From NCBI RefSeq assembly GCF_001457595.1, contig NZ_LN831039.1, positions 5,970,001 to 6,002,000 of the forward strand: 32,000 nt of DNA, read 5' to 3'. A program made the translations under genes and the position numbers. This DNA comes from Mycolicibacterium smegmatis (GTDB taxonomy: Bacteria; Actinomycetota; Actinomycetes; Mycobacteriales; Mycobacteriaceae). This document shows, in pieces, positions 23,437 to 30,345 of the stretch; position 1 is the first letter of the stretch; each line of letters opens with the position of its first letter. A model generated the notes under the pieces. That model ran no database searches. It was not told the origin of the DNA and worked only from the letters and a program-made list of their open reading frames with translations.

Positions 23437-23912
23437 TGCCGGCACGCAACGAGCAGGGCCGCACCCAGACACCGGATGTCGGTGATCTGGCCCGCTCGAT
23501 GCTGTTGCTGCACGGCATCCACGACGACGACGATCATCCGGCCGGCAATCAGCCGGGCACCGGAAGTTGGTCCAAGGCACCGAATTTCGCGTCCGATCCG
23601 CAACGCGCGGCAGCCGTTCGCGAGGCCAGCCTGCGTGACCGGGAACGCTACCTGACCTCGGGGCTGGTGTCGGTGGACTGCCGGCACTGCCACGTGTCGG
23701 TGCAGGTGAAGAAGCTCGGTCCCACGCACACCGCGGTGCAGTGGAACTCCGAGGCGACGCAACGCTGCGCGGTGTTCAACGAGATCCGTGCCGCCGGTGG
23801 CGATCCCGCACGTACGCCGTCGTGCCCGCGGCTGTCCGACAGCATCCGGCATGCCGTCGCCGAGGGCGTCCTCGAAGAGTCCTCGACGGCCCCGGCGCCC
23901 GGCGACGGTTAG
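23436..23912 (+). CDS. Conserved hypothetical Cys-rich protein, Rv3527-like
   Basis: In frame with track ORF 22737..23912. ATG 23436 overlaps the kshA stop (TGATG). MPARNEQGRTQTPDVGDL...CRHCHVSVQVKKLG... Confidence 0.7.
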   Translation: MPARNEQGRTQTPDVGDLARSMLLLHGIHDDDDHPAGNQPGTGSWSKAPNFASDPQRAAAVREASLRDRERYLTSGLVSVDCRHCHVSVQVKKLGPTHTAVQWNSEATQRCAVFNEIRAAGGDPARTPSCPRLSDSIRHAVAEGVLEESSTAPAPGDG

Positions 23913-25438
23913 CTTTCCCGCACCTTGGCCAGTGCAGATGCACGTTCGGTCAGGAACTTTCGCAATGTGTCCTTCTGCGCCTCGATCTCGTCGGCGCTCA
24001 GCCCGTCGGTGACGGGCACGGTCTCGGCGATCGAATCCAGCAGCGCCAGGGCCTGTCCGTCGGCGTAGATCTGGTCGTACAGCTCCCAGTACGCCTTGTC
24101 GTAGACCTCGGTGAACGCCGGTGACGCCAGGAACCGTTCCTTGAGAATGTTGCCGCCCAACTCCTTGCCGGGCGGCGGGCCCATGCCGGTGGGAAGTTGG
24201 AAGCCCGACGGCGGCTTGAACTCCATGGGATCGCGCGGCCCGAGCTTCACGTCGCCCATCATCGTGGCGAGGTTCAGGTCCCACGACACCACCGTGAACT
24301 TCTTGGTGCCCAGGTCGTACCACAGGTAGTAGTTCTGCCCGGGTCCGGCCATGTCGTCGCCGTTGATCAACAGGTTCTGCGTCGCGACGTAGCGCGCGAA
24401 CGATTCCACGTCGATCCAGTCACCCAGCGACCGGGCGAATTCCTCGTCGTCGGCGCTGTCGAGCCACTTCAGGAAGTTGATGAGCGGCTGCAGGTTTCCG
24501 GTGTCGACGGTGTTGATCTGCTTGAACTGATCGGCGTAGGCCGACTGGTCGGGGCCGGCGTACTCGAGCCGCGATTTGGCGCGCGCCTTGTACAGGTAGC
24601 CGTCGGAGTCGAACACCGTGCTCGCGTAGTTCTCGTCGGGGTGCTCGAGCAGCAGGCGCGTCGTGGTCGCGCCGTTCACCGAATACGTGATGTAGGAGTA
24701 GCGCTGCGTCGGCTGACCCGTCATCGCGGTCAGCGACAATGCCAGAGCCTCGTTGAGCACGGGCGCCCCGGGACGCACCGACAGTTCGGTCAGGCCCTGA
24801 TATCCACGGCCGTCGGCGTTCTCGTTGAAGCTGATCAGCAGAGGCAACGACAGCGGATCGTCCTCGGACACCGTGCCCATCGGCCCGCCGGGTCCTCCGA
24901 GACCACCAGGCCCACCGAAACCACCAGGCGGCCCACCAGGGCCTGGCGCACCGGGGGGACCCGGCGGACCGGGACGTCCTGGAGGCCCTGGAGGCCCGGG
25001 AGGCCCGCCCTCCCCCGGCGGGGGAGGGAAATGCACGCCGCGCAGACTCATCAACGTCGAGTTGCCCTTGAGCCGCACCGCGACGTCGTTGATCGTGGTG
25101 CCGTCGATCGTGATGTCGGCGGTCACCCACTTCTTGTCGCCGTCGGCCTTGAACTGCTCGACCATGTCGCGGTATTCGGCGTCGGTCAGCTCGACCGACA
25201 GCGAGTGCGGCACGGTGTTGTCGAACAGATCGACCGTGCCCGTGATGTTCTCGGTGATCTCCGAGGCGATGACGGTCGGGTCCCCCGTGATGTACGGCCG
25301 AATGCGGACGTCACCGAACACCAGCGCCACCACGGCCACGAACACGACGAACGCACCGAGCAGTTTCCAGTGCTGGCGCAGCGGTCTGGGGATCCGGTGC
25401 ACGAACCGGCGCCACCTCGAACTGGCCGGAGCCGCCAT
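23909..25438 (-). CDS. CotH kinase family protein with an N-terminal membrane anchor and an internal Gly/Pro-rich insertion
   Basis: ORF 23909..25438, 509 aa. TM segment WKLLGAFVVFVAVVALVFG. CotH-like VRLKGNSTL...YYLWYD... segments. Its start overlaps the DUF4956 stop (TGATG at 25436-25440). Confidence 0.8.
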   Translation of the reverse strand: MAAPASSRWRRFVHRIPRPLRQHWKLLGAFVVFVAVVALVFGDVRIRPYITGDPTVIASEITENITGTVDLFDNTVPHSLSVELTDAEYRDMVEQFKADGDKKWVTADITIDGTTINDVAVRLKGNSTLMSLRGVHFPPPPGEGGPPGPPGPPGRPGPPGPPGAPGPGGPPGGFGGPGGLGGPGGPMGTVSEDDPLSLPLLISFNENADGRGYQGLTELSVRPGAPVLNEALALSLTAMTGQPTQRYSYITYSVNGATTTRLLLEHPDENYASTVFDSDGYLYKARAKSRLEYAGPDQSAYADQFKQINTVDTGNLQPLINFLKWLDSADDEEFARSLGDWIDVESFARYVATQNLLINGDDMAGPGQNYYLWYDLGTKKFTVVSWDLNLATMMGDVKLGPRDPMEFKPPSGFQLPTGMGPPPGKELGGNILKERFLASPAFTEVYDKAYWELYDQIYADGQALALLDSIAETVPVTDGLSADEIEAQKDTLRKFLTERASALAKVRES

Positions 25439-26115
25439 CAGATGTCGGTCTGGTCGTAGCCCGTCAGCACCGTGACGCGCTGGCCGGTGTTCACCGCGGT
25501 CAGCGCCGCGATGAGGTCGCTGCTCTTCTTGTTCTTCTTCAGCTGCGCGGTGTAGTACAGCTCCATCAGCGCACCTGCGCGCACCGATTCGGTTGAGACC
25601 AGCTCGAATTCACTGCAGTACTCGATCAAGGTGTCCTCGACGCGTGCGGTGTATTCGGGCTCCGGCGGCACCTGCACCTTGACCACCTGGCGCTTGACGT
25701 CGAGCTTGAACATGTTGAACTTGTTCATGATCACCAGCACCAGGCAGATCGCGATGGTCGCGGCGATCGCCAACGTGTAGAACCGGGTTCCCGTCGTCAT
25801 ACCGATCGCCATCACCAGGAACACGAACCCGACGTCGCGGGTTTCCTTGATGGCGTTGCGGAATCGGATCACCGACAGCGCGCCGACCAACGCGAACGCA
25901 CGGGCGATGTTCGACCCGACCACCAGCATGATCACCGAGACCACCATGCAGACCAGCACGAGCGTCTGCACGTAGGACTGGCTGTAGGACACGTTCTTGT
26001 GGGTGTAACGGTAGACCCACCCGATGATGACGGACAGGACGAGCGAGAGCGCCAGCGACGCGACGACGTCGAACGTCGTGAAGGTGCCGCTGAGGTCCTG
26101 CAGGTTGATGTTCAC
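25438..26115 (-). CDS. DUF4956-family integral membrane protein
   Basis: Track ORF 25438..26496, trimmed to GTG 26115 (VNINLQDLSGTFTTFDVVASLALSLVLSVIIGW...) with an AGGAG SD 6 nt upstream. Several hydrophobic helices followed by a soluble C-terminal tail. Confidence 0.8.
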   Translation of the reverse strand: MNINLQDLSGTFTTFDVVASLALSLVLSVIIGWVYRYTHKNVSYSQSYVQTLVLVCMVVSVIMLVVGSNIARAFALVGALSVIRFRNAIKETRDVGFVFLVMAIGMTTGTRFYTLAIAATIAICLVLVIMNKFNMFKLDVKRQVVKVQVPPEPEYTARVEDTLIEYCSEFELVSTESVRAGALMELYYTAQLKKNKKSSDLIAALTAVNTGQRVTVLTGYDQTDI

Positions 26116-26164
26116 GGATACTCCTGATCGAACGAAATGGTGAAGCTTTGGGACGCAGCGGGAT

Positions 26165-27064
26165 TCACGCCGACGGTGAGGATTCCAGCAGGTCGTCGGG
26201 CACGGTGTCGTAAGCCCCGGCGGGCATGATGAGTTCGGGGGCGCCGAGCGCCGAGCGCGGCGCGAGGCCAAACGCCTGCACCGACTGGCAGTACTTCGAG
26301 ACGCGGATGACGGACATGTCGACACGGGCCAGCAGGTCGGTGATCCAGTACGGCACCCGCTCGTTGGCCTTGACCTCGACGATGGCCAGCTTGGGCGGGA
26401 TGATGAAGCGGTTCTGCGCACCCGAGGCGAAATGGAAGTCGCGGTCGCGGCCGTGCACCTTGTGGTCGATCGTGACGCGCAGACCCAGGTCGGCATCCCG
26501 GCCGACGAACGCCTCGCGCAGGTAACCCGTGGTGACGATGGGCCGCAGGTCGAGATTCTCCACGAGCGTCGTCACCTCGTTGACGAACGGCTTCTGCGAC
26601 GCGTCGCAGTCGATCTCCTTGCGGTGGTCGAGCCACTGCACGGCGGTCGCGTACGGCAGTTCCGTGCGCCGCTTCTGGGTGACGCGGTTGACGCGCTGTT
26701 TGATCTCGATCTGCACCGGGGTGTCGTCGGTGCAGGCCGACGGCGCGCCGTAGAGCCGCATCCGCAGCTTGCGGCGGAACCGCAGGCCCTCGATCTTCTC
26801 CCAGTAGAACCGCAGATCGGGCGTGTCGTAGTACAGCGAGGTCACCGGGTAGCCGCCGTGCGGCGAATACGGGTCGGTGTCCATGTGCGCGGCGAGTTCG
26901 TCGCGCAGTTCGGGGACCCGCAACTCGTCGACGAAGTACTTGATCTCGTAGCGGTTGAAGGCGTGCATCCTGCTGGCGGTCTGCGCATAGCCGCTCGGTT
27001 GCGTTGGCACGTCCTCGTAGGTCGCCGACGGGGTGTGTACGCGCCTGCGAAACCGGCCGAACAC
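26165..27064 (-). CDS. VTC-domain (Vtc4-like polyphosphate polymerase / triphosphate-tunnel) protein
   Basis: ORF 26165..27064, 299 aa. NRYEIKYFV (ExK beta-1 motif), RFRRKLRMRLY, VQIEIKQR and AIVEVKANE, typical of the tunnel fold. GTG start with a GGAAAGG SD 9 nt upstream; start uncertain. Confidence 0.75.
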   Translation of the reverse strand: MFGRFRRRVHTPSATYEDVPTQPSGYAQTASRMHAFNRYEIKYFVDELRVPELRDELAAHMDTDPYSPHGGYPVTSLYYDTPDLRFYWEKIEGLRFRRKLRMRLYGAPSACTDDTPVQIEIKQRVNRVTQKRRTELPYATAVQWLDHRKEIDCDASQKPFVNEVTTLVENLDLRPIVTTGYLREAFVGRDADLGLRVTIDHKVHGRDRDFHFASGAQNRFIIPPKLAIVEVKANERVPYWITDLLARVDMSVIRVSKYCQSVQAFGLAPRSALGAPELIMPAGAYDTVPDDLLESSPSA

Positions 27065-27170
27065 GCGCCACCGCCTTTCCAGTCTCCAGCACCACCTTGA
27101 CGTTCTCCGCGCTCAGCTAATCGCGCGAAGCTATGCGTCCGCTGTGCGGAAGATGGTTAACAGCTATCAA

Positions 27171-27176
27171 ATTATA
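27171..27176 (-). promoter_or_regulatory. Candidate -10 hexamer TATAAT (minus strand) for the VTC/DUF4956/CotH operon
   Basis: Perfect TATAAT in the only AT-rich intergenic tract of the window, about 100 nt upstream of the VTC start. No convincing -35. Confidence 0.35.
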
Positions 27177-27220
27177 GGTAACTGTCTGGGGTGACCTTCA
27201 CCACGCACCGAAAACCCAGG

Positions 27221-30331: not shown

Positions 30332-30345
30332 TAGAACGCGTTCTA
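30332..30345. promoter_or_regulatory. KstR operator, perfect palindrome TAGAACGCGTTCTA
   Basis: Same 14-mer as 17003..17016. Lies between the divergent DUF1214 operon and the IclR gene. Confidence 0.85.

Follow-up and report, generated by a model that had tools for sequence, protein, structure and literature searches.

A conserved VTC-DUF4956-CotH gene cassette in Mycolicibacterium smegmatis and its possible role in making polyphosphate for the cell envelope

Bacterial polyphosphate (polyP) is generally regarded as a product of the polyphosphate kinases PPK1 and PPK2, made from ATP, and as a cytoplasmic polymer. We describe here a cassette of three genes coding for a VTC-domain protein, a DUF4956 membrane protein and a CotH-family atypical kinase, found in a 32,000-nt stretch of Mycolicibacterium smegmatis DNA (hereafter the window, to whose coordinates all positions refer). 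Relatives of two among the three proteins were characterised by mutation. Nine residues of yeast Vtc4 (K200, R264, R266, K281, Y359, R361, E426, S457 and K458), examined by cryo-electron microscopy, bind triphosphate and Mn2+, mutation of each of them lowers polyP, and K458 is the only one of the nine that differs in Vtc2/3 (bioRxiv 10.1101/2023.01.27.525886). CotH of Bacillus subtilis is inactivated by mutation of its catalytic and metal-binding residues D228 or D251 (PMC7821199).

The three families have also been met together. In the work of Whitfield and co-workers, pelDEADAFG of streptococci and clostridia is adjoined by a contiguous set of accessory genes: cotH, one for a polyphosphate polymerase, DUF4956 and DUF4832. 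Bifidobacterial pel loci have a diguanylate cyclase/phosphodiesterase gene instead of DUF4832. A study of NELoc-2 of Clostridium perfringens listed the same families, their linkage passing uncommented; a chitin-synthase-like glycosyltransferase adjoins the trio there. The only genetics come from a 2025 paper on Streptococcus intermedius (SIR_1594, SIR_1593, SIR_1592), in which deletion of the DUF4956 or the CotH gene lowered aggregation and shifted Pel levels in opposite directions, and no change in aggregation was reported upon deletion of the VTC gene. The same paper found no synteny of the three genes outside pel loci. A first-pass annotation of the window had supposed that no function was shown for such a trio in any bacterium; the trio is nevertheless not new to the literature, the genes having been described as pel accessory genes and the S. 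intermedius DUF4956 and CotH deletions having phenotypes.

Examination of the window confirmed that the cassette is a real feature and that it had been accurately annotated. The three co-directional genes, the 49-nt gap between the first two and the TGATG stop/start overlap between the last two are all exactly as first described; the strand, which had not been given, is the minus strand (Table 1). Pfam profile searches placed the three proteins far above the cutoffs of the families to which they had been assigned, and the peptides YEIKY, RFRRKLRMR, IEIKQR and VEVKANE quoted from the VTC protein were each found in it. Hydropathy and charge bias agree with a soluble VTC protein, without any hydrophobic segment, and with an outward-facing CotH having a single transmembrane segment. 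A search with the PADLOC defence-system models gave no matches.

A scan in which each species was represented by a single genome yielded at least 568 relatives, of which the best 80, all from Actinobacteria, were analysed (Mycolicibacterium, Rhodococcus, Gordonia, Dietzia, Prescottella, Tomitella, Nocardia, Nocardioides, Micromonospora, Actinoplanes, Nonomuraea and Glycomyces). Genes for DUF4956 and CotH lie beside VTC in 79 of these 80 loci, the exception being a 1.5-kb contig, and the order VTC-DUF4956-CotH is kept throughout, bar three Rhodococcus loci. The stop/start overlap of DUF4956 and CotH, of 1 or 4 nt, is retained in 71/82 loci, drawn from these and four additional ones, and this speaks for coupling of their translation. 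Between VTC and DUF4956, the actinobacterial loci have a median spacer of 32 nt, against 49 nt in the window. The genes surrounding the cassette vary between genera, and even within Mycolicibacterium. Together with the distant loci described below, these counts bear out a co-occurrence far beyond the chance level on which the first reading had staked its case, and the three genes very probably form one functional unit.

Among the genes called within 10 kb of the cassette, no pel, DUF4832 or other polysaccharide-synthesis genes were found, either in contigs matching the window (99-100% protein identity) or in the Pfam-annotated loci of Rhodococcus, Gordonia and M. confluentis. The presence of a free-standing cassette in at least 79 actinobacterial species contradicts the published statement that the three-gene synteny is not found outside pel loci.

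Genes for an OmpR-type regulator and a HAMP histidine kinase directly adjoin the cassette in about 15 of the 80 actinobacterial loci, the window being without them (two-component loci, two distant ones included: L001, L003, L011, L016, L036, L046, L049, L063, L070-L078, L081, L090 and L092). Compared between Rhodococcus, Dietzia and Tomitella, these regulators share 75-95% identity. An attempt to name this two-component system with NCBIfam gave generic OmpR/PhoB-like and HAMP-kinase matches, all below cutoffs. Plasmid carriage of the cassette was considered and rejected: three records were weak or mislabelled, and mobility is unsupported.

The VTC protein matched Pfam PF09359 with 170 bits (cutoff 23, E 7e-50), its residues 37-264 covering positions 1-233 of the 235 in the profile. 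It has no transmembrane segment or signal sequence (maximum KD19 hydropathy 0.83), and residues 1-35 are basic and predicted to be disordered. An exhaustive homologue search at E <= 0.001 gave 5,583 clusters at 50% identity, eukaryotic members counted in. The best 150 matches listed range from 95 to 373 aa, the full-length ones being about 230-300 aa long and therefore stand-alone domains. A profile built from 76 diverse bacterial sequences matched the catalytic domain of Vtc4 over its full length (E 5e-23), whereas its matches to the inactive Vtc2 and Vtc3 were weaker (1.5e-14 and 4e-11) and of partial coverage. Alignment to the family profile with hmmalign showed that residues K42, R101, R103, K122, Y181, R183, E230, S256 and K257 of the window protein correspond, in this order, to the nine Vtc4 residues listed above. 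All nine are identical to those of Vtc4, and they are invariant or nearly so in the 76 homologues; the tunnel Lys and Arg residues whose loss would have told against the first reading are thus kept, together with the tunnel Glu. The AlphaFold2 model of the protein (mean predicted local distance difference test, pLDDT, 80.9) has the Vtc4 structures 3G3R/3G3Q as its top Foldseek matches (E 5e-16, TM-score 0.61-0.65), ahead of the triphosphatase ygiF (1e-8) and of CYTH cyclases. Judging from its sequence, the protein probably acts on tri- or polyphosphate, and both sequence and model suggest that it is, more likely than not, a polyphosphate polymerase.

The DUF4956 protein matched PF16316 with 108 bits (cutoff 30.6, E 5.5e-31) over residues 27-188. 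It also reached 30.5 bits against Pfam MgtC PF02308, just short of the cutoff of 31.4, while covering positions 1-119 of the 121 in that profile; a match to the NCBIfam MgtC/SapB model (E 4e-4) fell far under its cutoff. In the AlphaFold2 secondary structure, five helices (14-38, 46-66, 69-84, 91-108 and 113-132) are predicted to precede a C-terminal domain of beta-alpha-beta-beta-alpha-beta order (residues 142-217, pLDDT 70-81), which is loosely ACT/ferredoxin-like; its Foldseek matches to ACT, PII and ferredoxin-like folds are weak and none is significant. Of the 120 closest homologues listed, which are 79-97% identical, nearly all are likewise 225 aa long, and the protein is more conserved than CotH (38-78% in the genome loci). 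Residues 66-99, VGSNIARAFALVGALSVIRFRNAIKETRDVGFVF, form a core that hardly varies, even when the overall identity of the relatives is down to 45-51%. This core reads SNIARAF...IRFRNAxKETRD, includes the basic residues R72, R84, R86, K90 and R93, and holds the basic loop R84-F-R-N-A-I-K-E-T-R93. Given a cytoplasmic C-terminal domain and the positive-inside rule, this loop would lie at the inner face of the membrane, as the AlphaFold2 model and hydropathy suggest. The loop and the helices rich in small residues are more conserved than the ACT-like domain. The DUF4956 proteins of four Nocardioides loci (L051-L053, L058) share 80-82% identity with their mycobacterial counterpart and so stand no further from it than the Rhodococcus proteins do, which suggests transfer of the cassette between actinobacterial orders.

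The CotH protein matched PF08757 with 101 bits (cutoff 23.8, E 9e-29). Hydropathy reveals one transmembrane segment at residues 26-44. Since the tail before it contains seven K/R but lacks D/E, an N-in/C-out orientation with the catalytic domain outside the cytoplasm is predicted. The tail is kept in actinobacterial orthologues 42-85% identical overall, with R15, P17 and W24 invariant. An actinobacterial CotH profile matched Bacillus cereus CotH (5JD9) with E 1e-6, and in the alignment D361/D362, N369 and D387 correspond to the B. cereus motifs NFD...HNY...WDYD and are invariant in orthologues. The two Asp residues of the B. cereus motifs are 23 residues apart, as are D228 and D251 of B. subtilis. 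A cytoplasmic and kinase-dead CotH had been named beforehand as a finding that would overturn the first reading, and both the predicted topology and the conserved Asp residues are consistent with that reading; by its sequence, the kinase looks active and outward-facing.

The CotH orthologues (among them those of L033, L051, L079, L086 and L087) carry two low-complexity inserts at fixed positions and of variable length and composition, located in the window at 24869-25036 and at about 24150-24250. The window protein has collagen-like PGP tracts, arising in part from a 9-nt tandem repeat at 24951-25007 (Tandem Repeats Finder, period 9 x 6.3 copies), and PEGMEx-type repeats occur in Nocardioides, Dietzia and Glycomyces. 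Matches to collagen and S100 proteins in the PDB searches were discarded as low-complexity or chance, the spurious collagen matches being due to these inserts.

Beyond the 80 loci, three relatives of the VTC protein about 35-43% identical to it were found. Two belong to VTC-DUF4956-CotH loci with an OmpR-type regulator and a HAMP kinase (L090, L092). In the third (L091), VTC and DUF4956 are followed by a 44-aa open reading frame (ORF) and by a gene for a Cthe_2159 lipoprotein replacing CotH. A metagenome scan seeded with low-GC VTC proteins then gave 80 loci, in which ORFs were called and searched with profiles, and neighbours were clustered and named with Pfam. DUF4956 was present in 63 of the 67 evaluable loci, nearly always adjacent to VTC, and a third partner in 51 of 56: a Cthe_2159 lipoprotein with a lipobox in 37 loci, CotH in 13 (some of them 900-1,300 aa long with a beta-helix tail) and a porin only in one, none being found in the other five. 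The Cthe_2159 proteins fold as beta-helices and are binders of cellulose and acidic sugar polymers. In four metagenome loci, two of them also with CotH, VTC-DUF4956 is flanked by genes matching Porin_O_P, the family of phosphate-selective porins O and P, and a two-component system was present in 12 of 47 evaluable loci. Whenever a third partner was found in a distant locus it was extracytoplasmic, be it CotH, the lipoprotein or the porin. The invariant core of the module is the VTC enzyme and DUF4956, and the third partner is variable and lies outside the cytoplasmic membrane when found; some presumably diderm bacteria add the phosphate-selective porin family.

Several other genes were observed at the distant loci. 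The 44-aa ORF of L091 (9572-9706) resembles the tail-plus-transmembrane anchor of CotH in related loci, being a remnant or else a small membrane subunit that was retained. Between a large CotH and VTC, L099 encodes a HEAT-repeat protein about 755 aa long (4671-6938), as do L100, L102 and L104; a HEAT-repeat gene lies near CotH in NELoc-2 of C. perfringens as well. In L097, which has a porin and no CotH, a 956-aa protein with an ATP-binding domain of the pyruvate-phosphate-dikinase type is encoded upstream of VTC (238-3108). A gene for a GT4 glycosyltransferase or a sugar epimerase adjoins the module in L094 and L111. An apparent VTC-DUF4956 fusion in L117 proved to be an artefact of ORF calling, the genes being separate.

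The explanation that we tentatively favour is that of a self-contained three-gene envelope module which makes polyP and delivers it outward. The VTC protein would be a cytoplasmic tunnel enzyme of the Vtc4 type that polymerises the gamma-phosphate of ATP into polyP, as the conservation of residues and fold suggests. It may dock on the basic cytoplasmic loop and the ACT-like domain of DUF4956, its obligate membrane partner, and the polymer would cross the cytoplasmic membrane by way of a DUF4956 oligomer or next to it. The pair would then amount to a non-homologous, split counterpart of the eukaryotic VTC complex, in which synthesis and translocation are coupled. CotH, translationally coupled to DUF4956 and presumably anchored beside it by its tail and helix, would act between the plasma membrane and the mycomembrane, where it could use the exported polymer, for instance by drawing phosphoryl groups from it in a space devoid of ATP, or phosphorylate envelope targets alongside export. 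That the product reaches the outer face of the membrane is somewhat less likely than not, and is suggested, indirectly, by the extracytoplasmic third partner and by the Porin_O_P genes beside the pair in four loci. We are doubtful that CotH uses or modifies this product. In its fullest form, the proposal gives many bacteria a dedicated, PPK-independent polyP export machine in which the polymerase docks on a DUF4956 oligomer and extrudes the polymer, porins of the OprO/P type carry it further in diderms and CotH uses it as phosphoryl donor; taken as a whole, this appears unlikely. The module is in any case real and widespread, and the idea of export raised by the first-pass annotation is plausible from the sequences. 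Its suggestion that VTC and DUF4956 form a split VTC analogue agrees in function and fails in homology, since DUF4956 is MgtC-like. DUF4956 being of a different family from the membrane part of VTC, the module would be analogous to VTC without being a copy of it split in two.

A number of observations weigh against synthesis coupled to export. The membrane partner is, by its sequence, MgtC-like and unrelated to the membrane domains of the Vtc1 type; MgtC is a regulator and not a channel, and DUF4956 moreover holds a likely ligand-binding domain. Its AlphaFold2 model is poor (overall pLDDT only 58), and single-sequence and profile searches of the PDB as well as Foldseek gave no solved structure resembling its membrane part. 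The VTC protein has R-x-E-x-K as its beta-1 motif where Vtc4 has R-x-T-x-K, the extra Glu, E40, being nearly invariant in the family. This motif is halfway to the ExExK of hydrolytic tunnel enzymes, and E40 recalls that of the hydrolytic CYTH enzymes, so that a hydrolase or another tunnel chemistry is possible; our literature search found no paper testing a bacterial VTC-domain enzyme. In most of the sampled distant loci, CotH is replaced by a non-kinase, and kinase chemistry is therefore not essential to the core pair. About 20 of the 80 metagenome loci come from one gut lineage, so the sample is redundant and the counts drawn from it describe this sample and not frequencies. Finally, the deletion pattern in S. 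intermedius does not fit a simple linear pathway.

Some of these observations would be at home in a system of intracellular control without export, which we consider the strongest competitor, though a rather doubtful one. The MgtC-like DUF4956 would tether or control a VTC enzyme that, on the inner side of the membrane, makes or hydrolyses polyP or triphosphate, and CotH would be an envelope kinase linked to it by its cytoplasmic tail as a trans-membrane signalling unit. The MgtC homology of DUF4956 and its C-terminal ACT/ferredoxin-like fold favour such a role, as do the conserved tail of CotH, the resemblance of E40 in the tunnel to hydrolytic CYTH enzymes, and the opposite effects on Pel level of the DUF4956 and CotH deletions in S. 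intermedius. The two-component systems adjoining part of the loci, actinobacterial, distant (L090, L092) and metagenomic alike, point the same way. Control at the inner face nevertheless leaves the extracytoplasmic third partner and the four porin-flanked loci unexplained, and within DUF4956 it is the basic loop and the small-residue-rich helices that are more conserved, rather than the ACT-like domain which would be expected to sense a ligand.

The trio could instead be an accessory module of exopolysaccharide synthesis, in which the polysaccharide, or the machinery that makes it, is the substrate of CotH while VTC and DUF4956 supply or regulate phosphate; in the mycobacterium of the window the target would be a different envelope glycan. 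This appears improbable. The contiguity with pelDEADAFG in streptococci, clostridia and bifidobacteria speaks for it, together with the glycosyltransferase next to the trio in NELoc-2, the deletion phenotypes on Pel level and aggregation, the GT4 glycosyltransferase or sugar epimerase beside the module in L094 and L111, and the polysaccharide binding of the Cthe_2159 partners. The cassette keeps a constant form across many unrelated chromosomal contexts, however, and polysaccharide-synthesis genes are missing within 10 kb of it in the window and in the Rhodococcus, Gordonia and M. confluentis loci. A role in exopolysaccharide synthesis is also compatible with outward delivery of polyP and does not exclude it, since exported polyP could act on a cationic glycan.

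In the window, the trio is flanked by genes coding for KshA, an Rv3527-like protein, an Rv3529c-like sulfotransferase, an Rv3530c-like short-chain dehydrogenase/reductase (SDR) and an Rv3531c-like protein. Seven matches to the KstR operator pattern TnnAACnnGTTnnA, at 732, 12683, 17002, 18102, 22245, 25706 and 30332 against 0.04 expected, mark this region as a cholesterol cluster. Six of them precede steroid-catabolism genes, kshA (22245) and the Rv3531c-like operon (30332) being examples. The remaining one, at 25706, is a weaker variant with TTGAAC; it falls within the coding sequence of DUF4956 and belongs to a short 9-nt repeat, and the Rhodococcus DUF4956 orthologue does not keep its codons. 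The corresponding gene order in Mycobacterium tuberculosis has been published, along with the restriction of Rv3528c to the M. tuberculosis complex, most non-tuberculous species being without this gene (PMC6429209). By comparison with that order the flanks in the window match, and the trio does interrupt the otherwise syntenic interval from kshA to Rv3529c, as first proposed. Since Rv3528c is lacking in most non-tuberculous species, the junction occupied by the trio is a variable site.

The trio lies between Rv3527-like and Rv3529c-like genes only in the window organism, Mycobacterium sp. GA-2829 and M. vaccae, and its presence among the cholesterol-catabolism genes reflects an insertion specific to this lineage rather than a link in function. 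A link to steroid catabolism was accordingly discarded as the main explanation, the insertion site being common to just these three related organisms. A KshA paralogue, 57-59% identical to that of the window, is encoded within about 3 kb of the cassette in four Rhodococcus loci (L001, L016, L030 and L046), which are otherwise unrelated to the cholesterol cluster of the window. The trio had further been said to lack a KstR operator: TnnAACnnGTTnnA is indeed absent from its own 156-nt upstream region, but the trio stands co-directionally downstream of an operon with a perfect operator at 30332. A scan for terminators and promoters between that Rv3531c-Rv3529c-like operon and the trio gave nothing convincing, so that read-through is possible. 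That the trio is for this reason part of the KstR-controlled cluster, serving steroid uptake or envelope remodelling during growth on sterols, is very improbable: it does share the strand of the operon, just 156 nt downstream, and has a KshA paralogue nearby in the four Rhodococcus loci, but it occupies this site in three organisms only and lies elsewhere in all other loci, its own upstream region has no operator, the variant at 25706 is weak and unconserved in Rhodococcus, and the site itself is variable, M. tuberculosis holding its lineage-specific Rv3528c there.

Within the spacer before VTC, an AT-rich imperfect palindrome, CAGTTACCTATAATTTGATAGCTG, was noticed at 27150-27185. It contains TATAAT, is not conserved elsewhere and could be a candidate promoter or operator. 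No shared DNA motif was found upstream of VTC in 84 loci, only coding sequence being conserved, and the predicted RNA fold of the upstream region was no better than that of shuffled sequences (z = 0).

Table 1. Positions of the features of the VTC-DUF4956-CotH cassette in the window, and of porin genes in metagenome loci (locus number before the colon)
Feature	Position	Strand	Description
VTC gene	26165-27064	-	GTG start; 299 aa; candidate polyphosphate polymerase; Pfam VTC PF09359
DUF4956 gene	25438-26115	-	GTG start; 225-aa membrane protein; PF16316
CotH gene	23909-25438	-	ATG start; 509-aa atypical kinase; PF08757
VTC-DUF4956 spacer, 49 nt	26116-26164	-	AGGAG at 26121-26125, then GTG start at 26115; read from sequence
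TGATG stop/start overlap, DUF4956/CotH	25436-25440	-	DUF4956 TGA overlaps CotH ATG; read from sequence
VTC tunnel-residue codons, K42 through K257	26294-26941	-	hmmalign of window protein and Vtc4
DUF4956 invariant core, residues 66-99	25819-25920	-	near-identical positions across actinobacterial proteins and relatives
CotH N-terminal module, basic cytoplasmic tail and transmembrane segment 26-44	25307-25438	-	consensus RRLxHRxPxxLRQHWK
CotH N-lobe Pro/Gly-rich collagen-like insert, residues ~135-190	24869-25036	-	45/56 residues G or P
CotH catalytic loop D361/D362...N369 and metal-binding D387 (WDLN), codons	24278-24358	-	alignment with B. cereus CotH
VTC upstream region, 156 nt	27065-27220	-	AT-rich imperfect palindrome; TATAAT at 27171-27176
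Porin_O_P genes	L097:5375-7021, L105:2224-3459, L106:2074-3381, L108:4620-5918		Pfam match

The VTC-type family is spread across bacteria (5,583 clusters, the eukaryotic ones included), almost always with a small membrane protein and an outward partner, a pattern that points to a third bacterial route to polyP, one that may deposit the polymer in the envelope or release it to the medium. Several problems are touched by this: where extracellular polyP comes from, which phosphoryl donor serves secreted CotH-type kinases, the role of MgtC-like membrane domains, and that of the unexplained accessory genes of Gram-positive pel biofilm loci. An export machine, if it exists, would explain how secreted kinases of the CotH family can be active in places devoid of ATP, and a role in transport would fall to membrane domains of the MgtC-like kind. 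The actinobacterial cassette being small, free of pel genes and present in culturable Mycolicibacterium, Rhodococcus and Gordonia, the question is directly testable.

Compared with known systems, the cassette combines familiar parts in a particular way. Its CotH shares the kinase core of the Bacillus proteins (5JD9/5JDA), including the Asn and both Asp residues, catalytic and metal-binding. The Bacillus protein works in the mother-cell cytoplasm, where it is supplied with ATP and phosphorylates CotB and CotG, whereas that of the window comes from a non-sporulating actinobacterium, is predicted to be anchored facing outward and has two variable low-complexity inserts. DUF4956 aligns with the membrane domain of MgtC/SapB/YhiD proteins over nearly the whole MgtC profile, followed by its C-terminal ACT-like domain; it differs in scoring just under the Pfam MgtC cutoff, in having an invariant core of its own and in being encoded nearly always beside a VTC enzyme, as in 63/67 evaluable distant loci. 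In the pel accessory set, the three families are likewise contiguous, CotH is outward-facing or secreted, and DUF4956 was described as an MgtC-type membrane domain with an ACT domain. The window, in contrast, has no pel operon or nearby DUF4832 hydrolase, its CotH has a transmembrane anchor and Pro/Gly-rich inserts where the pel-associated CotH has a C-terminal FN3 domain, and the free-standing form is common in Actinobacteria and other bacteria.

With PPK1 and PPK2 the cassette would share the net reaction from ATP to polyP, although folds and mechanisms are unrelated and the kinases are encoded without a dedicated membrane partner or outward-facing protein. The closest likeness is to the catalytic tunnel domain of the eukaryotic VTC complex, as judged by Pfam, by the nine tunnel residues including the K458 equivalent and by Vtc4 being the closest structure, and in both cases the enzyme is paired with a small multi-helix membrane protein. 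The enzyme of the window, a soluble protein, has however no membrane domain and no SPX match in Pfam; its beta-1 motif is RxExK instead of the eukaryotic RxTxK, and its partner is an MgtC-like DUF4956 protein with an ACT-like domain rather than a three-helix subunit of the Vtc1 type. The proposed destination of the polymer would be the cell envelope, where in eukaryotes it is the vacuole.

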